From a virus (Duplodnaviria > Heunggongvirae > Uroviricota > Caudoviricetes), in IMG/VR virus record IMGVR_UViG_2734482565_000012: DNA of 40,525 nt; one strand, 5' to 3'. Position numbers and translations under genes: made by a program. The notes under the pieces are model-generated. The model was not told the origin of the DNA. It searched no databases and worked only from the letters and a program-made list of their open reading frames with translations. Shown here piece after piece: positions 2,380-28,796 of this stretch (the stretch's first letter is position 1; the number at the start of each line of letters is the position of its first letter).

Positions 2380-5300
2380 TTAACATTCCCCCATCACGTC
2401 GCATATTTAACAGATTGCCCTGCACCCGCTGATCAACCATCCCCATAAGTGCTTTTATTGCCTGAGGGCCAATCTCTCCATTCTGGCCGTCATTTTGAAT
2501 AGTGATTTGGTATACAGGGGCATAGGTAATATCTCCGCCTCCATTACCACTTTTACTATTAATAGCTCTGACACCAAGAGAACCATCGGAAGTTCGTGTT
2601 AATGGCATAATGGCTTCCGGTCCAGCCTCACCAAAAACACCAGCCCCTTTTGCAAAAGCAAAAAATTGCGGGGAATCATAAATACCGTTCGAATACGTGC
2701 TCAATGACGGAGACTCATAAACACCGCCCTTTGCATTCGGAATAAATTTACTAATAGCACTCCCGATAGTTCCTAAAATCCCCCCAGAAGAACTGTTACT
2801 AATGCTGTCGAAAATCCCAGTAATTGAAGCCTTTAATGCTATTCGACTAAGATCCGAAATCACGGAAGTAGCGAAAGAACGAAAATTTGCCTTGCCTGTC
2901 GTGACAAAATCACCCAGCGCATCGGTCATCCCATCAAACATCTGAGTCGTGGTTGATTTTATCTGCTCACTGATATCCTTAGTGTCATCCAGCCAGTTAT
3001 TGAATCCCTGGGAGGCACCACTAACCCAGTCTCCTGCCTGAATATCGAGCTGCTCGTTTTTCTGTCTGACAATTTCTTTTTCCCGTTCCAGAGCATCATT
3101 CAGAGCCTGCATTTTCTCTTGAAAAACATGATCTGACATTCCACGGGATTTATCTGCATAGTCACGTTCAAGTTGCAGACGCTGATTGTTATATCCATGT
3201 TCAATCCGCAGTAATTCCTGCTGGCGTTGCTGATTTTTATCGCCAACCCCATAACCAGCAATCTGAATATCATACCCCTGCTGACGATTATCAATCGAAG
3301 CCTGCAATGAATCACGCCATGCTGTTATTTCGGCGGATTCCTTGATTAGCCTGTTATTTTTTTCAATCGCAACATTTTTCTCCATCAACGTGGTTATTTC
3401 TTCCCGGTGTAAGAGAAGCGATTTCTGATCCTGGGTTAATTTCGATGATGGTCGTGACTCTAGGTCGGCAATCCGCTGACGCCACTTAACCAGTTCCTGT
3501 TCAGAGGAACTTAATTTAACGGTCAACTCAGCTTGTGAACTTAGTAACGCATTCTGTTGATTCAGATGATCAATCATTCGTTGGGCTGCATCATCAGAAT
3601 AACCTTTCGCCTTTGGTTGCTTTGGATCTTTATAACGCTCATTTATTTGAGCGATAAGATTATTATATTCTTCCTTTGAATACTGATTCTTTAGCTTTTC
3701 CAGTTTTGCAAGTTCACTAGCTCTCTGCTGCTCCCGGGTCTGATATTGTTTTGAAAAGGCATCTGCTCTCTGTCTGAGTTCAATTCCTTCCTGTTGTCGC
3801 TTGTTGTAATCGTTTATTGATGAATTTAGTACGTCCTGAGCAATTTTTTCTGCTTGAAGTACGCCCAATTGCTGCTTTAATCGTGCCAGCCTTTTATTTT
3901 GAGCTCCGCCATCTCCAATGCCACCTAACCCGAAAACTCCGGGTCGGGTATTTTTTTCTATTTCATCAATTTGACGGAGAACATCTGAGATTTTTTGATC
4001 AAGGGAGGCCTCACGGCCAATATCCAGCATGGAATCCCATGCCCATTTTGCGGAGTCTGCGACAGCTTTCCATGCAGTCTCAAGATAACCAAGATTTTCT
4101 TTAATCTGGTTGGTGCGCTGGATCATTGAGGATGAGTATTCTTCTGTCGCAATGCGGGCGGCCTCCTGCTGGTTCCCTTCATCCTGTAGCGCCTTAATCT
4201 GGTTATAAGTCGCAAGTGTCAGAAAATGGTACTGATCATTAAGTTTTGATATGGCACTGACAGGATCCTTTGCAATTTCATTGAAGTCATTAACCAGTTG
4301 TTCGGTTGATATTCCTGTTACTTCGCTCGTTTTTACTATCGCTGTCGTCACTTGCTCCAGCGAACTGCTCGCTACCTTTCCCGAACGCACAAGCTGATTT
4401 AATACTGCCGCCGCAGCACCAGTTGTCGAATCAGCCGCATTCCCGGCACGTTGAGCTATATCGCCCAATTGCCCGCTGGTTGTCCCCAACTGATTTCCGG
4501 TAAGAATAAGAGATTTATTAAATTCGTCCTGCTCCTGAGAGCCTTTATAGTAAGCCAGTCCTAAGACCCCAACGGCTGCTGCGGCCAGGGTAAAAGGATT
4601 AATTAATCCCAGCACATAAGAACCTACACCTTTGATCGCCGGGCCAATCCCACCGAACATATCTTTTAGCTGGCCGCCCTGCTGCATTAACACCATAAAT
4701 GGCGACTGACCAGTGGACAACCCAACAACAATATCCGTCATTTGTACAGGCAACATGCGCATAGCAAAAGCCGTTTGTTTTGCCGACATTCCGGTTTTGC
4801 TTAATTGTGATTGAGTAACCTCAAGCTCACTCCGCATAGCACGAAGTTTTCCAGAAAGCTCCTCATACATTTCAGGAGAAAGCATCCCCTTAGCTTTTGC
4901 TTCATTGAGCTGTTTCTGTTGTTCTACCAGACGATTAAAAGCAGTTCCGACAGGATCAAGTTGAGCAATCAGACGTTGCAAAGCAACAACCTGTTCATCA
5001 TGCGCTTTTGCTGCTTCTCGCTCTGCCTGAGCCTCTCCGGTAAGCTCTCGCCGTGTTTCCTGTATTTTTCGGCTATAATTCTCAAACTGAGAACCATTTA
5101 TTTTCCCGGATGCAAACGCAGCATTAAGTTCATCATGCTGTTGTTCAAGATTTCTTAGCGCCGCAGCCAGAGGGTCGATCTTGTCCAGCATTCTTTGAAA
5201 GGCCTGAGCCTGCGCTTCCTGCTGGGCGGCAGCAAGTTTTCCGGCCTTCTCGGCTTCTCTCTGCGCTTGCGCAACCCCGCTCAATTCCTCTGTGGTTTCA

Positions 5301-5605
5301 TTAAGTTTACGGACAAGAAATTCATATTCTTCTTTATCAATAAGCCCTTTATCGAAAAATTTCTTTAATTCAGAATAGCGTCGACCGACAGTATCAATTG
5401 CGGCACCAACTGGATCAATAGCTGCTTTTAATTTTGCGAGCGCGTTCTTCTCATCTTCTGTTGCCTTAGTCACTTTCCCTGCGCTATTTGCAGCAGTTTC
5501 CCCAGCCTGCGTCATTTTGACTAATGAGGAGGTCAGATTGTCAGCATTATTTTTCGCTCCAGTGCTATCAATAATTATTGCGAGACGCGAGGTTTGCTCT
5601 GCCAT
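2372..5605 (-). CDS. tail tape measure protein
   Basis: 1077 aa, long coiled-coil-rich N-terminal two-thirds (repeated A/Q/E/K/L heptads), hydrophobic central segment, glycine-rich C-terminus; positioned between G-T and M. Confidence 0.9.
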
Positions 5606-5619
5606 TTATTAAAACTCCT

Positions 5620-5650
5620 GACAACAAAAAACCCACCGCGAAGTGGGTTT
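5620..5650 (-). terminator. intrinsic terminator-like hairpin between G-T and tape measure genes
   Basis: Plus strand aaacccac-cgcgaa-gtgggttt; on the minus strand the stem is followed by TTTTTGTTGT. Lies in a roughly 165-nt non-coding spacer. Confidence 0.4.
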
Positions 5651-19973: not shown

Positions 19974-20438
19974 TTACTTTAAACACTGCTCGGTTATGTA
20001 TTGCTGAGCACCTTCAAGTTGGGCCTGCATCATTACCAGTCGTTCCCGGAGGGTGAAATAATCCCGTTCAGCGGTGTCTGCCAGTCGGGGGGAGGCTGCA
20101 TTATCCACGCCGGAGGCGGTGGTGGCTTCACGCACTGACTGACAGACTGCTTTGATGTGCAACCGACGACGACCAGCGGCAACATCATCACGCAGAGCAT
20201 CATTTTCAGCTTTCGCATCAGCTAACTCCTTCGTGTATTTTGCATCGAGCGCAGCAACATCACGCTGACGCATCTGCATGTCAGTAATTGCCGCGTTCGC
20301 CAGCTTCAGTTCTCTGGCATTTTTGTCGCGCTGGGCTTTGTAGGTAATGGCGTTATCACGGTAATGATTAACAGCCCATGACAGGCAGACGATGATGCAG
20401 ATAACCAGAGCGGAGATAATCGCGGTTACTCTGTTCAT
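19974..20438 (-). CDS. rzpR: i-spanin Rz
   Basis: N-terminal TM ([18 protein letters not shown]) followed by coiled-coil; immediately after the endolysin gene; start placed at MNRVTAII. Confidence 0.8.
20033..20218 (-). CDS. rzoR: o-spanin Rz1, embedded in Rz in the +1 frame
   Basis: 61 aa; lipobox LVVVGC; proline-rich ([15 protein letters not shown]); fully nested within Rz. Confidence 0.75.
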
Positions 20439-20932
20439 TGCTGACCCCACAAACAGATTTCACGCTCAATCTCACGACGAGTCATGAGACCTTTCCATTG
20501 CTTACCGCCAGCATATGTCCAGCGACGTAGCTGATCACATGCGCCTTTGATATCGCCCTGGTTTATTTTGCGAAGAAGCGTCGATGTTCTGAAATTGCCA
20601 GCGCCCACGTTGTAAACGAACGAGTAAAGAGCGCCGCGCGTTGTTTCCGGTATATCGACTTTGATGTACGGGTTAATTTGTCTGGCGACAGTGGCAAGGT
20701 CTTTATTCAAGAGTGTTTTGCATTCTGCTTTGGTATACGTTTTACCGAGCATGATGTCTTTTCCTGTATGCCCGTGACATACAGTCCATACACCAACAAT
20801 ATCTTTGTATGGTATGTAGCTGACACCTTCCAGACCATCGTTACCACTTGGGCCAGTGATTAACACTGATGCTATAGCAATTGCTCCGCCACCAATAGCA
20901 GCAGCAACGACTTTTCGTAATGATGGAGGCAT
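20435..20932 (-). CDS. SAR endolysin (lysozyme R, phage 21 type)
   Basis: 165 aa; N-terminal SAR segment [21 protein letters not shown] followed by catalytic region [21 protein letters not shown]; near-identical to P21 R as recalled. Confidence 0.88.
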
Positions 20933-21147
20933 TATTCACCTCTCGCAGCCTTGCGCTTATCTTCTTTAATCTTGAAATAAAGGTTTGTCAGGTACGTCAG
21001 CAGGCCAAATACCAGACTACCCAGCACACCGATTGCAGCCCACTGTGACGGAGTTACTCTATCGAGCAACTGTAAAAACCAGTAGCCAGCACTGCCTGCG
21101 GAGGTGCCGTAGGCAATGCCTGTTGAAATTTTGTCCATGGATTTCAT
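20932..21147 (-). CDS. pinholin (S21-type, dual-start motif MKSM)
   Basis: 71 aa from [25 protein letters not shown].. with GGAGGTGAGG SD upstream; two TM segments; highly basic C-terminus; stop abuts the endolysin start. Confidence 0.85.
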
Positions 21148-21249
21148 AGCCTCACCTCCGCACGGAACGGATGGCATAGTTATTATGTGTAGGCTTTCAG
21201 ACACATCAATCAGAGCCTTAATTGATATATATGCTGGAGACGATGCAAT

Positions 21250-21273
21250 ATAAAAAGCTCGCCGTAGCGAGCT
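21250..21273 (-). terminator. intrinsic terminator-like hairpin between lipoprotein genes and lysis cassette
   Basis: agctcgc-cgta-gcgagct stem (plus 21256-21273); on the minus strand it is followed by UUUUUA. Confidence 0.4.
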
Positions 21274-21398: not shown

Positions 21399-21794
21399 CT
21401 AACCTCGCATGTCAAAGCCAGATTTCTGAAAATCTCTGTAGACTTCCGGATTGTTGAAGGCCGGAAATTTGGCTTTATGAGCTGCGGACTTTATCGCTTC
21501 GCAATAGGCTTTATCACCGTTACTGGTAGATATTTTTAACGCCGTGCCATCCTGAGAGAATTCCATATGCAACCTGCATTTTTTCCCTTTCCAGTTATGC
21601 GGCTCATCAAGTTTGGCATTAATTGCAGCTCTGATTCCCCGCGCTTGCGCCCCCCATTCATCCTGATCATCCCAGCGTCCTGAACTGCAACTACCTGTAG
21701 CAGTAGTTTTGTGGCAATCTGAAGGGTGTAAAGGTGTGCATCCCGCAACAAAACCGACCCAAAAAGTCAACATAACGATTTTCTTTAATCCCAC
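21399..21794 (-). CDS. lipoprotein with TolA C-terminal (domain III)-like domain, paralog 1
   Basis: 131 aa; signal peptide plus lipobox FVAGC, +2 Thr; C-terminal ..KGKKCRLHMEFSQDGTALKISTSNGDKAYCEAIKSAAHKAKFPAFNNPEVYRDFQ.. matches the TolA C-terminal pattern. Confidence 0.7.
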   Translation of the reverse strand: MGLKKIVMLTFWVGFVAGCTPLHPSDCHKTTATGSCSSGRWDDQDEWGAQARGIRAAINAKLDEPHNWKGKKCRLHMEFSQDGTALKISTSNGDKAYCEAIKSAAHKAKFPAFNNPEVYRDFQKSGFDMRG

Positions 21795-21944
21795 TTCTTG
21801 CTCCTCAATCCATTAAAATCTCAGCAATAGTAGTTGTTACGTCCGCCACTGGCTCAGAGCTGACTATCCGCTAAATTTAGCTCAGTGCCGTAGCTGTGTC
21901 AGAACAAACCTAAGCCGAAACCGTTTATTACAAAACAATAAATA

Positions 21945-22373
21945 TCAGGGTTTAAAATCCAGCACCCCATTTTGAAATACTTTATATACTTCCGGCGAAG
22001 GGGGGGCAGGTATATCAGCATTCTTTATCGCATTCATCGCTTCACGACATAAATCGAGGTCTCCACTTTCTCTTTTAACCTCCAGTAGAAGGCCATTCGG
22101 GGCCATATGCATTCTCAGTGTACACTCTTTTCCTGAATACTTACTCGCATCCCCGAACTGTTTTTCGATGGCGCTCTTGATTTGATGGGCATACAGACGG
22201 ATATCCTCACTAACATCAGAAGTACGTTCAGATGAACTCACATACTGTGTCTCTATTGCTTTATCGGAGTAATATGATGTACGGTCATGATAATTTGTCG
22301 ATACAGCATCAGTGCACCCGATAATAATCCCACTAATAATCAACGTAAGAATTGATGCGCTACGAAAACCCAT
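21945..22373 (-). CDS. lipoprotein with TolA C-terminal (domain III)-like domain, paralog 2
   Basis: 142 aa; lipobox IIIGC, +2 Thr; C-terminal ..YAHQIKSAIEKQFGDASKYSGKECTLRMHMAPNGLLLEVKRESGDLDLCREAMNAIKNADIPAPPSPEVYKVFQNGVLDFKP closely parallels the E. coli TolA C-terminus as recalled (..AGQIKSAIESKFYDASSYAGKTCTLRIKLAPDGMLLDIKPEGGDPALC..VYEVFKNAPLDFKP). Confidence 0.75.
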   Translation of the reverse strand: MGFRSASILTLIISGIIIGCTDAVSTNYHDRTSYYSDKAIETQYVSSSERTSDVSEDIRLYAHQIKSAIEKQFGDASKYSGKECTLRMHMAPNGLLLEVKRESGDLDLCREAMNAIKNADIPAPPSPEVYKVFQNGVLDFKP

Positions 22374-22537
22374 TTTTCCTCACATATGTCATATAGTAAA
22401 GGATTATATATACCGTTGTTTTGGACGCTCAAACAGCGAATCAGATCAAATAAAACGCACATTTGTTAACATTTACACAAAGTCTGCGTGGGATATTCTG
22501 AAAGAATATCCATAATGTGGAGAGAATCTATTGAAGT

Positions 22538-22640
22538 GCATGGTGCCGGGTGCCTCCCGGTGAACAAAATGTTCGTGATACCTGTCGGCGACAGAAAAGG
22601 TTAATGGTATCACCCCACCGCACAGGGGGATTCACCATGC
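22538..22640. repeat. dense cluster of nested inverted repeats in the leader of the late operon
   Basis: gcatggtg(22538)...caccatgc(22640) outer arms; ccggg-tgcct-cccgg; gaaca-aaa-tgttc; gtgatacc...ggtatcac enclosing palindrome ctgtcgGcgacag. Confidence 0.4.
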
Positions 22641-22960
22641 AGGAGTTTTCTTAGCAAACTCACTGCGCGCCCGGCAACTCCCAACCACATAAAATGCGGA
22701 GTTTGTGGCATTTATGCATATAACTCGCAGGAATTATCTTAAAAAACTGATGTCGATCCGGATTAAAAAGAAGCAGGTCATCATCAGATGACTGGAAAAA
22801 AGGAAAACAAAAAATACTCATCATACAGTTTTGATTGCAGGGATGAGCCTGCTATGCACAATATGCAGAATATAAGCAAGATAAAAATATGCAGGCATAT
22901 TATTTCGGATCTTGTTATTAACACAACCTTTTTAATAATCATTTGGCATACAATAAACCA

Positions 22961-22990: not shown

Positions 22991-23310
22991 GGTCAATACA
23001 AAGGATGCTTCGTCTTTATTATAGTAATCTGAGGCGTCGGGTGTCTTGTATCAGACAACATATTGTCCCGCTAAACAGCGAATTACAAACCACCCTGCAA
23101 TGATCTCTCATCTCATTTTATATGAGTTGACGACATCAGGATAACGCATCATCAGCCCCTGCCAAGAAATATCAAAACTCCCGCCAGCAATGTGTTATCA
23201 CAATATTGTAAAAAAAACACAGCACCGAAACTATAACTGGTCTCTGTTATAATTTGGAGCAGAAAGACCAGTTGCCCAACTAGCAGCATTCTCCCCTGCT
23301 TTCCTGACGT

Positions 23311-23337
23311 AAAAAAACCGCATTAAGCGGTTTTTTT
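23311..23337. terminator. bidirectional intrinsic terminator-like hairpin just downstream of the Q-like gene
   Basis: aaaaaaa-ccgc-attaa-gcgg-ttttttt: perfect stem flanked by an A-run and a T-run, so terminator-competent on both strands. Confidence 0.55.
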
Positions 23338-23417
23338 ACGATGTCCATGTCTGCAATCCGCCTCGCGATACAGCTTTGCGAAGCATAGCAAAATTGAAGC
23401 AGTTTATACGTAAGAAA

Positions 23418-23960
23418 TCAAGCCATTTTCTCAGCAAATGATTCACGCATGGGAATATATAGGGCATACTCAGCAACAGCTAACCAATTAGCAATCCGTT
23501 TTTCGCATGTGCTAAAACACCACTCTGGGTGTGCATCATTTAGCAATTCAGCCATTTTGCGCTTAGTCATCCCCCGCCCTTCATAGCGTTGCCGGAGAAT
23601 GCAAATCAATCCTGGATGCTCTGCCAGCACCTCACTTATGACTCGATCAATACATAACGCCTCTGCATCAGTACAATGCGCCAGCCAGCTCTTTTGCTTG
23701 CCGTTGATCATCTCTCGCAAAAACGCTTCCAGCTCAGCTTTCTCTATTCCCGCTTTTTTCATTCTGCGCAGGGCTTCATTAATGGCTGTTTTCGTCAGTT
23801 TTTTGGATGCCAACAACTGATTGAACATATTCCCTGACCTGCCACCGCCAATATACGACCAGCGCCCCCACATACGTAGTTTTCCCTGAATCCAGACACT
23901 TTCCAGCGTGGTGAGGCGAAGGTGTTCTCCGCTTTTTCCTGTATTCGTTGGGTAAATCAT
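23418..23960 (-). CDS. putative late antiterminator (Q-like)
   Basis: 180 aa; last gene before the terminator-rich interval preceding the lysis genes; basic protein with Cys/His residues. Called by position; family not verified. Confidence 0.45.
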   Translation of the reverse strand: MIYPTNTGKSGEHLRLTTLESVWIQGKLRMWGRWSYIGGGRSGNMFNQLLASKKLTKTAINEALRRMKKAGIEKAELEAFLREMINGKQKSWLAHCTDAEALCIDRVISEVLAEHPGLICILRQRYEGRGMTKRKMAELLNDAHPEWCFSTCEKRIANWLAVAEYALYIPMRESFAEKMA

Positions 23961-26618: not shown

Positions 26619-27620
26619 TTAGTAATCTGCGTGTTTCGCACTTTTCAGAAATGCTTTCATATTTTCATTAGGTCGCTCAATTTCGAAGTTACTTCCATAT
26701 AACTCTTGTAATTTTGGCCATAACTTACTTAATAACCCTCTCCTGCGATAAAATGGATGTATCCAAACGGTAGATAGGTACGGAGAATTTGCATTTGAAT
26801 TGTTTATTGTGACCAGCCCAACTAAACATTGTCGATAACCACTATTATCCATTGATTGTATTTCTTCGACGAATGGATACGCGATTACATCAGTCCAACC
26901 ATGATCGGTTGTATCCCATTGCATTCCGTCATGACATTCCTTCGACTGATAGCGGCGTAAAGCTACACACGCGAGCTTTTGCCAATCTGGAGAATTAATT
27001 GTGATCTCTTCATCGTATGACGCGCCTATTGGAGCGGGTATTGGTCTGATTAATCCAGCATGGCATTCATCATAGAACTTCATGTTTCCCTCAGAAACGT
27101 TGTGTACGTTGGGTTGCTCCATGTGTGCGCCATTCAAAAATAGCTCTGATAGTAGTGTATCTACACTGTAATCTTTATTGATTATTGTCGGCTTAGAGTT
27201 TTTCTTATTAAGGCCGCGAGTAACGATTTTTTGATCAATGTTAACAACATGGAATAATCCGTCGGGGAGGCTAGCGAACCACGATGGGGCATCGGACCAG
27301 AATAGCATGCCTTTTGTACTTCTTAAGAGTTTAATTAAGTTAATACAAGCTTCTTCACTAGTCTTGCCGTTGATGCGAAGTATGTTAGGACTAAAGTAAT
27401 ATTCATCCATATCAGGGAATGCAGCTTCGCAAAACTCCTGTACATAATTTAGCACCTGGATTCTACAGAGATCATCATAGCTGGTAATAACTAAGGGGGT
27501 ATCTTCATTACTATTATGATTATCAATAATGCAATCTATAGCGAGACTTACTGCTTTGCGTATCACTTCAGTTGAATCTAACGACTCTAAAAATTTTGTC
27601 TTTCGTGTGCGAATATCCAT
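26619..27620 (-). CDS. hypothetical protein B of AT-rich two-gene cassette (C-terminal GNAT-like motif)
   Basis: 333 aa; start 15 nt after the stop of gene A; C-terminal ..GYRQCLVGLVTIN..YLSTVWIHPFYRRRGLLSKLWPKLQEL.. resembles GNAT motif A; AT-rich codon usage; no resemblance to core lambdoid genes. Confidence 0.65.
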   Translation of the reverse strand: MDIRTRKTKFLESLDSTEVIRKAVSLAIDCIIDNHNSNEDTPLVITSYDDLCRIQVLNYVQEFCEAAFPDMDEYYFSPNILRINGKTSEEACINLIKLLRSTKGMLFWSDAPSWFASLPDGLFHVVNIDQKIVTRGLNKKNSKPTIINKDYSVDTLLSELFLNGAHMEQPNVHNVSEGNMKFYDECHAGLIRPIPAPIGASYDEEITINSPDWQKLACVALRRYQSKECHDGMQWDTTDHGWTDVIAYPFVEEIQSMDNSGYRQCLVGLVTINNSNANSPYLSTVWIHPFYRRRGLLSKLWPKLQELYGSNFEIERPNENMKAFLKSAKHADY

Positions 27621-27635
27621 GTATGACCTGCGCTA

Positions 27636-28658
27636 TTAAAATTCATGAATGAACGGTTTGTCATCTGGTTGCAAAATGGTGGTTTTATTCGTTGCTACAT
27701 TTAAACTGTTGTAGAGCATAATTGCCAGGTTCGATGCATTTTCAATCAGCGTTTCAAGATCCTGGTCTGTAATCACTACGAGGTTCCCTTCTTTATCCTT
27801 TCCACCACGATGCACTAAGTGATTTCGATTGAGGGTTGCCAATTCAATAGCTTCTATCGGACAGTCTTTTTGTACTTTTATATCGAATGTAGCTTCATAG
27901 CGGTCGATTACCTTTTTAGTGCTATGCCAGCTTGCACTGATCAAGTGTTCCTTGATTGACCTGATTAGCTCTCCCCTAATTTTCTCGATGGGTTCACCCT
28001 TGAAAGGCAACGCAGCAATATCTTTGCTTACTTTAAATTCAGTCTTACCTTTTTCTATACAATTGGCTATGTAGACATCATCTTTCTCTATAGAATTAAT
28101 GAATAGCTCAACATAAAGCGTTTCCAAAGCTGTAATAACATTCGTGTAGAGCAAACTAAGCAAGTGGTTTTTTTGCTGTTGTTCAGTTTTATCTTTTGCA
28201 AGTTTTTTTATTTTATCGATATTATCAATGAATTTTAAATACGGATTACCGGAAGACGTTACAGCGTCGTAGATATCATCATCGTACCAATCATCTATAT
28301 TATTTGAGTTTCCAGACCAGTCAAAACATTGTGTTTGTAATTCATCTACTAATTCCTCAATATACTCAGATTTAACATATTGACCGAAGATGGATTGTAG
28401 TTCTTCGCTCGCATCATACGGCCCGCCATATATGTAAGCATAGCCACCTTCTCTACTTTCATACGGACAAGCATTTGCCGGATCTTCAAAGTTTTCAAAG
28501 AACCAGTTTTTCATTACTTCGAGTTGATCTTTTTTGCTTATGTATTTTAAAGATTTTAGTGGAACTTTCTTTCCATTAACCTCGAAAACAATTTTCACGA
28601 TGTAACGCTCCCTTGTATCAATTGCGCAACTATTATACCACAGCGAAATACAGGGCAT
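27636..28658 (-). CDS. hypothetical protein A of AT-rich two-gene cassette (C-terminal HEPN-like R-x4-H motif)
   Basis: 340 aa from MPCISLWYNS with AAGGAGG SD (ORF track start 28727 is upstream of the SD); C-terminal ..AIELATLNRNHLVHRGGKD.. has RN-x3-H spacing; acidic N-terminal region. Confidence 0.65.
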   Translation of the reverse strand: MPCISLWYNSCAIDTRERYIVKIVFEVNGKKVPLKSLKYISKKDQLEVMKNWFFENFEDPANACPYESREGGYAYIYGGPYDASEELQSIFGQYVKSEYIEELVDELQTQCFDWSGNSNNIDDWYDDDIYDAVTSSGNPYLKFIDNIDKIKKLAKDKTEQQQKNHLLSLLYTNVITALETLYVELFINSIEKDDVYIANCIEKGKTEFKVSKDIAALPFKGEPIEKIRGELIRSIKEHLISASWHSTKKVIDRYEATFDIKVQKDCPIEAIELATLNRNHLVHRGGKDKEGNLVVITDQDLETLIENASNLAIMLYNSLNVATNKTTILQPDDKPFIHEF

Positions 28659-28688
28659 AACCTGCCTCCTTAAACTAACATACCATGA

Positions 28689-28712
28689 GCCAGCAATGTC
28701 CGCTATTGGCAC
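28689..28712. promoter_or_regulatory. perfect 7-bp inverted repeat immediately upstream of cassette gene A
   Basis: gtccgct-attggcacaa-agcggac about 30 nt upstream of the SD of gene A; a TTGACA hexamer lies a further about 40 nt upstream on the minus strand. Confidence 0.3.
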
Positions 28713-28796
28713 AAAGCGGACAACCACGCTAGCTCTCCCCTGTGCCAGAAAAATGTCAATTTACATATGAACTAATGCTCTTTGATCTAGTAACGT

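Follow-up and report, generated by a model that had tools for sequence, protein, structure and literature searches.

What might a prophage gain from carrying, between the position of its late antiterminator gene Q and its lysis genes, two small lipoproteins that end in a likeness of the host protein TolA? The question is raised by two neighbouring genes in IMG/VR virus record IMGVR_UViG_2734482565_000012, a stretch of 40,525 nucleotides (nt) that we refer to as the window and to which all positions refer unless another record is named. An original prediction, made from the letters of this DNA, had claimed two open reading frames (ORFs) here, each coding for a lipoprotein with a C-terminus like domain III of TolA. 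Both are present on the minus strand with exactly the coordinates claimed, and they encode proteins of 142 and 131 amino acids (aa) with the following parts:

21945-22373, minus strand: gene for the 142-aa lipoprotein; intact ORF, ATG start at 22373, stop codon at 21945-21947
22377-22381, minus strand: Shine-Dalgarno sequence GAGGA of the 142-aa gene, before the ATG, read from the sequence
22314-22373, minus strand: signal peptide and lipid-bearing Cys20 of the 142-aa protein
22215-22313, minus strand: predicted disordered, Ser/Thr/Tyr-rich linker of the 142-aa protein, aa 21-53
21948-22214, minus strand: TolA domain III of the 142-aa protein, aa 54-142
21399-21794, minus strand: gene for the 131-aa lipoprotein; intact ORF, GTG start at 21794, stop codon at 21399-21401
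21801-21806, minus strand: Shine-Dalgarno sequence GAGGAG of the 131-aa gene, 6 nt before the GTG, read from the sequence
21738-21794, minus strand: signal peptide and lipid-bearing Cys19 of the 131-aa protein
21666-21737, minus strand: segment of the 131-aa protein with Cys27/Cys36 and the acidic motif GRWDDQDEWG, aa 20-43
21402-21665, minus strand: TolA domain III of the 131-aa protein, aa 44-131

TolA is a force transducer: its domain III (TolAIII) forms a globular tip, its domain I is a membrane helix that couples the protein to the proton-driven TolQR motor, and its domain II is a long periplasm-spanning helix. Profile comparisons and structure prediction confirm that both genes encode a signal peptide, a predicted flexible tether and a complete TolAIII. 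Both proteins exceed the gathering score (25 bits) of the Pfam family PF06519 (TolA C-terminal), the 142-aa protein with 82.6 bits (E-value 2.4e-23) and the 131-aa protein with 54.6 bits (E-value 1.3e-14), and the only Pfam families above threshold for the proteins are TolA and TonB_2 C-terminal. The 142-aa protein matches the E. coli TolAIII chains 1S62, 3QDP, 2X9A and 1TOL with E-values of about 1e-27 to 1e-28, and aligns without gaps to residues 334-421 of E. coli TolA, where 52 of 88 positions are identical (59%); the 131-aa protein, a member of phrog_5772, is 31% identical to E. coli TolAIII and has altered binding edges. In AlphaFold2 (AF2) models the predicted local distance difference test score is above 90 for residues 54-142 and below 50 for residues 1-50 of the 142-aa protein, and is above 90 for residues 44-131 of the 131-aa protein, whose N-terminal stretch is disordered. 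Foldseek aligned the predicted model of the 142-aa protein to 2x9a_B with a root-mean-square deviation of 0.6 Å and a template modelling (TM) score of 0.96, and that of the 131-aa protein to 3qdp at 1.3 Å, with a TM score of 0.89 and 32% identity, the predicted fold of both being a three-stranded sheet against helices that superposes on solved TolAIII. The TolA disulfide Cys363-Cys388 has its equivalents in Cys84/Cys109 of the 142-aa protein and Cys73/Cys98 of the 131-aa protein, which are invariant in both families. The likeness to TolA domain III is thus borne out by profile, by sequence match to solved structures and by predicted fold, and the profile and structure comparison that the original prediction had proposed gives a significant match for both proteins.

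The rest of TolA is missing. Where E. coli TolA has domains I and II, the lipoproteins have a signal peptide and a short tether: no domain I is present in either protein, the N-terminus being a lipoprotein signal peptide with no SHLS motif, and a short stretch predicted to be disordered stands in place of the long Ala/Lys/Glu-rich helix of domain II. Models of full-length TolA are accordingly matched at their C-terminal ends only, the 142-aa protein covering positions 293-386/387. With PRK09510 the scores are 107.8 bits (142-aa) and 53.7 bits (131-aa), below the cut-off of 213; with TIGR02794 they are 75.6 and 47.2 bits, so that the 142-aa protein passes the cut-off of 59.45 from the C-terminal end alone. 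As domains I and II are missing and a short outer-membrane tether is predicted instead, the domain should be unable to transmit force.

Both proteins fit the lipoprotein pattern of a positive n-region, a hydrophobic h-region and a lipobox of the form [LVI][ASTVI][GAS]C. The signal peptides at the two N-termini are MGFRSASILTLIISGIIIG and MGLKKIVMLTFWVGFVAG, each followed by C-T; the lipoboxes are IIIG-C20 in the 142-aa protein and FVAG-C19 in the 131-aa protein, with Thr at the +2 position of both. The Asp at +2 that signals avoidance of the Lol pathway is absent from both, a criterion that is a sequence rule only, and by this rule both proteins should be anchored in the outer membrane, in its inner leaflet. 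Asp at +2 was likewise found in none of the 59 short TolAIII lipoproteins recovered by an exhaustive profile search. The lipoboxes are conserved in both families, being kept in relatives of the 142-aa protein as distant as 65% identity and matching the strict pattern in 111 of 120 relatives of the 131-aa protein, where the nine missed have lipoboxes of the LTAGC or LTVGC type and, in one, AARC. Between the lipid-bearing Cys and TolAIII lie 24-33 residues that are predicted to be disordered. The lipoprotein signals with Thr at +2, and the outer-membrane sorting that had been read from them, therefore fit.

In the near-identical E. coli locus (NZ_CP033250.1, locus L002, 20200-21006), RefSeq annotation by PGAP gives a different picture: the 142-aa gene appears as a 261-nt pseudogene of tolA with an incomplete N-terminus, and the 131-aa gene is started at an internal ATG (124 aa), which drops the Lys-Lys n-region. 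We prefer the GTG start of the 131-aa gene because it is preceded by the Shine-Dalgarno sequence GAGGAG and yields the Lys-Lys n-region. The label 'tolA, incomplete' arises because the cut-off of the full-length model TIGR02794 is passed from the C-terminal end alone, and both RefSeq calls are artefacts that come from comparison with a full-length TolA model of which only the C-terminal end is covered; together they hide the lipoprotein nature of the pair. The ratio of nonsynonymous to synonymous substitution rates (dN/dS) is 0.07-0.17 in the 131-aa family and 0.26-0.39 in the 142-aa family, where the signal peptide and tether account for most of the change, and these values indicate that both families are under purifying selection. 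The 142-aa domain is not a recent fragment of tolA, since it is only 59% identical to host TolA.

The two proteins had been described as paralogs, which overstates their relationship, as they are 29% identical and belong to different lineages. Recent tandem duplication is ruled out by this identity and by the differing distributions and contexts of the two families. The 142-aa family comprises 46 clusters at 90% identity, its named members being from E. coli and Shigella and its full-length relatives at least 65% identical. In all contexts examined it lies in a lambdoid prophage of E. coli or Shigella, with the Q gene on one side and the holin gene on the other, and its presence there is variable: the adjoining Q gene is of the lambda-type Antiterm or the DUF1133 kind, the 131-aa gene is often missing, and other cargo, such as nanS-p-like esterase genes, is sometimes there. 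The 131-aa family is broad (370 clusters) and is carried mainly on chromosomes or plasmids of other Enterobacteriaceae, not by phages. In Enterobacter it is a syntenic chromosomal gene amid metabolic genes; Citrobacter and Serratia each have it as a single gene in chromosomal surroundings of another kind, with GmrSD and HEPN genes next to it in Serratia. When one genome of each species was scanned, the gene turned up in 23 more named genomes of Enterobacterales, of genera that include Leclercia, Kluyvera, Lelliottia, Raoultella, Klebsiella, Pantoea and Yokenella, and in these 23 genomes no homologue of the window's holin, lysozyme, Rz or Q-position gene was found near it. About 600 E. coli/Shigella plasmids carry a copy of the 131-aa gene with 87% DNA identity, and on conjugative I-complex plasmids a gene of the family directly follows the relaxase operon nikA-nikB. 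Plasmid copies are positioned as follows:

L130, 5004-5435, and L131, 5004-5435: 131-aa family gene of IncK2/Z plasmids, downstream of nikA-nikB
L004, 5815-6246: 131-aa family gene of a pO157-like plasmid, after a relaxase remnant and before toxB-like (TcdA/TcdB-domain) ORFs

These contexts replace a placement in the IncF leading region that we had considered for the plasmid copies. Of 5426 complete E. coli genomes, 774 contain the tandem locus with a coverage of at least 80%, and in nearly all of these the identity is 99% or higher. Among 50,697 sequenced phage records the locus is found in one, mEp460_ev081, which has only a cassette of about 1.6 kb in common with the window, and a scan of viral contigs returned near-identical copies only. 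A phage-specific role of the 131-aa family is ruled out by these 23 genomes, where homologues of the window's lysis and Q-position genes are not nearby, and by the single phage record with either gene. Copies 88% identical to the 131-aa gene were also seen on two contigs (L108 and L109, 8 kb) of metagenome-assembled genomes labelled Lachnospiraceae and Treponemataceae; these are most likely contamination by enterobacterial plasmids.

Both proteins belong, as judged by profile search, to a large family of short TolAIII lipoproteins. An exhaustive search of 1.84 billion representatives gave 582 TolAIII clusters at 50% identity, and among the best 149 matches 80 are 100-170 aa long, of which at least 59 have a lipobox; named members come from Klebsiella, Serratia, Kosakonia and Dryocola. 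Most of the short TolAIII lipoproteins end in a strand of the form [LIM]-D-F-[KR]-x. A member with the same lipobox-tether-TolAIII architecture is encoded on 10-kb ColRNAI plasmids of Klebsiella (lipobox LLTA-C, C-terminus APLDFRP), with 39% identity over TolAIII (residues 51-142 of the 142-aa protein). Its gene lies near a bacteriocin-immunity-lysis operon and overlaps by 4 nt a gene for a TonB C-terminal domain that bears a signal peptide:

L003 (NZ_CP028788.2), 4908-5641: Klebsiella TolAIII/TonB-domain gene pair, about 0.85 kb from the bacteriocin operon, with one small ORF between

This pair looks like a module of combined Tol and Ton 'hub decoys'; the genes have been noticed before, without interpretation (PMC10269471).

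If the domain is a copy of TolAIII, which of its binding surfaces have been kept? In TolA the β3 edge (A415-P421, with D418 and K420) accepts the TolB N-terminus, colicin N and g3p-N1 by strand addition, and proline substitutions in β3 give a complete tol phenotype (PMC4339652; PMC7391070), as do point mutations that block TolA-TolB pairing, which give a full tol, leaky phenotype (PMC4339652). Colicin A binds at β2 (Leu375-Pro380) together with Lys368, Lys379 and Lys396 (PMC3365938). TolA residue numbers are those of the 142-aa protein plus 279. Like E. coli TolAIII, with which it shares fold and disulfide, the 142-aa protein has the LDFKP strand and most of β2: its β3 reads GVLDFKP against APLDFKP in TolA, with LDFKP identical, and its β2 reads LLEVKR against LLDIKP, K379 and K396 being kept and K368 replaced by His. 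In the 131-aa protein β3 reads SGFDMRG, where of D418 and K420 only Asp418 is kept. The 142-aa protein, with both edges nearly intact, would thus be the better candidate for a broad decoy, and the 131-aa protein may have a different or narrower ligand, because both of its edges have diverged while fold and disulfide are kept. As the edges are kept to differing degree, the two proteins need not share a function.

The segment between lipid and domain in the 131-aa protein also sets it apart. Although AF2 models aa 20-43 as disordered, the pair Cys27 and Cys36 is unchanged in relatives as distant as 30% identity and GRWDDQDEWG is conserved in closer ones, and from this conservation the segment appears to be more than a plain tether. 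The TolB box of colicins has the form DGSGW...W. We considered GRWDDQDEWG as a mimic of this box and found the idea unsupported, since the Trp residues are differently spaced and the motif, unlike the invariant Cys pair, erodes in relatives of 30-57% identity.

We propose, as the likeliest of the explanations considered, that both proteins are TolAIII decoys, tethered to the outer membrane and uncoupled from the motor, that would make their carrier tolerant; we regard this proposal as evenly poised between right and wrong. A tethered TolAIII would meet Tol-dependent invaders at their first appearance in the periplasm, namely the translocation domains of group A colicins and bacteriocins related to them and the N1 domain of g3p of filamentous phages, and it would also sit beside TolB-Pal. 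It would bind its partners by β-strand addition, at β3 for TolB, colicin N and g3p and at β2 for colicin A, and, unable to pull, it would trap these ligands or colicin-primed TolB unproductively. The lysogen would thereby gain tolerance to Tol-dependent bacteriocins and filamentous phages, with some interference between TolA and TolB as the price of excess decoy. A modest amount could be selective, because TolAIII binds colicin N far more tightly (~1 μM) than TolB (~40 μM; PMC4339652).

Several known systems resemble such a decoy in part. Soluble TolAIII exported to the periplasm reportedly renders E. coli colicin-tolerant and leaky (Levengood-Freyermuth, Click and Webster 1993, J Bacteriol 175:222), the phenotype predicted here from a TolAIII that is likewise isolated and uncoupled from the motor; the laboratory protein was artificial and overproduced, whereas those of the prophage are natural, lipid-anchored, borne on a mobile element and under selection. 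Llp of T5, Cor of phi80, N15 and mEp phages and TraT of F are likewise small outer-membrane lipoproteins of mobile elements, encoded at accessory positions, and protect the carrier cell against phage or DNA coming in. Llp and Cor, however, inactivate the receptor FhuA, whereas the TolAIII lipoproteins would imitate a periplasmic import hub, and no sequence relationship to Llp, Cor or TraT was seen among the above-threshold Pfam families. I pili are the receptor of phage IF1. The g3p of this phage uses TolAIII as co-receptor (PDB 2X9A), and g3p or its N1 domain in the periplasm makes a cell refractory to filamentous phage and to colicin A (PMC10424213). This exclusion by Ff g3p targets the same interaction between TolAIII and its ligand, with the difference that there the ligand blocks the receptor, whereas here a spare receptor would soak up the ligand. 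The relatives on mobile elements, those of bacteriocin plasmids and of I-complex conjugative plasmids, point by analogy to a role in competition or defence.

When might the pair be expressed? Its surroundings, which the original prediction had described as the slot between Q and the lysis genes, contain the following:

23418-23960, minus strand: gene for a DUF1133 protein of 180 aa at the position of the late antiterminator Q (PF06576, E-value 2.5e-107)
22484-22670, minus strand: STnc100 small RNA-like element (Rfam; 86.6 bits against a gathering score of 47)
22403-22432, minus strand: candidate sigma-70 site TTGAGC-18-TATAAT, about 30 nt upstream of the 142-aa gene (10/12 in a consensus scan)
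21246-21273, minus strand: intrinsic terminator between the 131-aa gene and the holin gene (hairpin at 21273-21256, then a U tract)
19974-21204, minus strand: lysis cassette directly downstream of the lipoprotein pair, from Pfam matches and the RefSeq annotation of a near-identical locus
20932-21147, minus strand: P21-type holin gene of the cassette (RefSeq reading, within the ORF 20932-21204)
20435-20932, minus strand: lysozyme gene of the cassette
19974-20450, minus strand: Rz gene of the cassette
20033-20218, minus strand: Rz1 gene of the cassette

The slot is therefore as described, and the placement of the pair, between a Q-position gene and a holin gene and thus between conserved modules, is like that of a moron. 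The slot had been likened to that of stx and bor in other lambdoid phages, and the comparison stands for stx only. Lambda bor lies downstream of Rz, outside the Q-S interval. No tRNA genes, as found in the stx slot, were found between the Q-position gene and the 142-aa gene. The terminator-like hairpin noted earlier is real: it has a 7-bp stem (AGCUCGC/GCGAGCU), a UACG loop and a T tract, with a folding energy of -13 kcal/mol (z = -2.67). The candidate promoter is largely kept upstream of a 91%-identical variant, with TGTAAT for TATAAT, and is absent upstream of a 66%-identical variant. The pair would probably be transcribed from its own promoter and end at the terminator at 21256-21273, which Q-modified polymerase would pass in lytic growth; with both routes the proteins could be made in the lysogen and late in infection. 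The STnc100-like element occupies the untranslated stretch from the Q-position gene to the 142-aa gene, recurs upstream of the 91%-identical variant in other prophages, and may be part of a late leader transcript. The Q-position protein itself gives a borderline match to Phage_antitermQ (26.1 bits against a cut-off of 26), and the DUF1133 gene could be a little-studied type of Q. Directly after it, at 23310-23340, we also observed a strong hairpin followed by a T-run, AAAAAAACCGC-TTAAT-GCGGTTTTTTT.

A number of points weigh against the decoy proposal. Ligand binding by the lipoproteins is read from conserved residues, and since β3 lies within the sheet its conservation may mean a constraint on folding and not on binding; the 131-aa protein has moreover lost all three lysines of the colicin A site. 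A decoy could be costly by competing for the TolB N-terminus. The genes sit in the late operon, so that their main expression could be lytic, and the candidate promoter is weak evidence, as the region contains 11 sigma-70-like sites where shuffled sequences contain 7.9 ± 2.6, which is no enrichment. The stability and synteny of the 131-aa family in the Enterobacter chromosome would fit a housekeeping role in the envelope equally well. No functional study of phage- or plasmid-encoded TolA-like proteins was found in the full-text literature, where mentions of a prophage or plasmid 'TolA' are annotation only; PHROG 5772 is listed as of 'unknown function', and the defence-system models of PADLOC do not match the lipoproteins.

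Other explanations account for parts of the evidence. One is that the proteins serve a physiological purpose in the envelope, binding a host partner (TolB, CpoB, a porin or another protein) by strand addition and tuning Tol-Pal, the outer membrane or stress resistance, much as Bor or Lom change the surface properties of the host. The spread of the 131-aa family through Enterobacteriaceae, its synteny in Enterobacter and a dN/dS of about 0.1 would suit such a factor, as would its diverged TolA-type edges and its invariant Cys pair and acidic motif, which a mere tether would not need. The relatives, however, adjoin bacteriocin operons and conjugation genes, and the neighbours of the 131-aa gene differ among the genera examined, as is typical of accessory genes and as illustrated by the Serratia copy beside GmrSD/HEPN; we think this explanation rather unlikely. 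A helper of lysis or release is a still different possibility, in which the proteins, produced chiefly from the late promoter along with holin, endolysin and spanin, would titrate the TolB N-terminus at the outer membrane and switch off Tol-Pal, loosening that membrane and so speeding its rupture in lysis or increasing the release of vesicles. The pair is indeed in late-operon position, on the same strand as Q and S and immediately upstream of the holin gene, as in every other prophage examined that carries a gene of the 142-aa family; the TolB-binding β3 edge of the 142-aa protein is intact, and loss of TolA-TolB pairing makes cells leaky with a full tol phenotype (PMC4339652). Against this, an intrinsic terminator closes off the pair before the holin gene, as in a self-contained unit; the 131-aa family is present on plasmids and in the genomes of 23 other species where homologues of the window's lysis genes are not nearby, and the spanins of this prophage already disrupt the outer membrane, so that we consider a part in lysis decidedly unlikely.

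It might finally be asked whether the genes are mere remnants of tolA that the phage acquired and that have no function, as the PGAP label 'incomplete; missing N-terminus' on the 142-aa gene implies and as a score above the TIGR02794 cut-off from a protein covering only the C-terminal end might suggest. This is very improbable. Both frames are intact and have good ribosome-binding sites, the lipoprotein signal peptide, which TolA does not have, is kept down to 65% identity, dN/dS is well below 1, and the tandem locus is present in the 774 E. coli genomes, nearly unchanged in almost all; as pseudogene fragments of tolA the genes are ruled out by their conserved lipoboxes, intact frames and dN/dS of 0.07-0.39.

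The homology of the domain to TolA is already known, since Pfam, PGAP and RAST annotate it. What seems to have gone unrecognised is that a lipoprotein can consist of TolAIII only, that this architecture is found on prophages, plasmids and chromosomes alike, and that it may serve as a decoy. Group A colicins, klebicins and cloacins related to them, and filamentous phages all use TolAIII as their shared gateway, and resistance to such agents is usually ascribed to loss of receptors, to tol mutations or to immunity proteins. A transferable decoy, if the proposal is true, would be a fourth route to resistance and one that spares Tol-Pal function. The prevalence of the tandem locus (about one in seven complete E. 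coli genomes) and of the 131-aa gene (the approximately 600 plasmids) is relevant to bacteriocin therapeutics and to hosts for phage display, and bears on the colicin tolerance of many natural isolates; for the Tol-Pal field, the two families provide natural variants of TolAIII with diverged binding edges. A tentative extension, which we judge somewhat more apt to fail than to hold, is that motor-less copies of periplasmic import hubs, namely TolAIII tethered to the outer membrane and, on certain plasmids, a secreted C-terminal domain of TonB, form a general and unrecognised defence of enterobacterial mobile elements, in which the two copies of this prophage would cover different ligands. If so, prophages, conjugative and bacteriocin plasmids and chromosomal islands would confer broad tolerance to Tol- and Ton-dependent bacteriocins and to pilus-specific filamentous phages.

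The window as a whole is a prophage of the Rac type, with intR, xisR, ralR/RalA, recET, kilR and sieB, then replication and nin genes and, further on, the lysis cassette, trkG and the genes for head and tail. A region of the E. coli ECCHD184 chromosome (NZ_CP033250.1) matches it with 99.3% identity over 21.5 kb, a segment that takes in the lipoprotein and lysis region, and with 98.7% over a further 7.8 kb. The two prophages diverge at about 25.2-32.0 kb of the window, where that of ECCHD184 has MFS, gamma-glutamylcyclotransferase, LysR and BCCT cargo instead. Within this interval of the window, at 26619-28727 on the minus strand, is a two-gene cassette for proteins of 363 aa (weak match to HEPN_RES_NTD1) and 333 aa (weak match to GNAT); PADLOC gives no match for the cassette, whose two genes may form a defence or toxin pair not yet characterised, in a slot of variable content.

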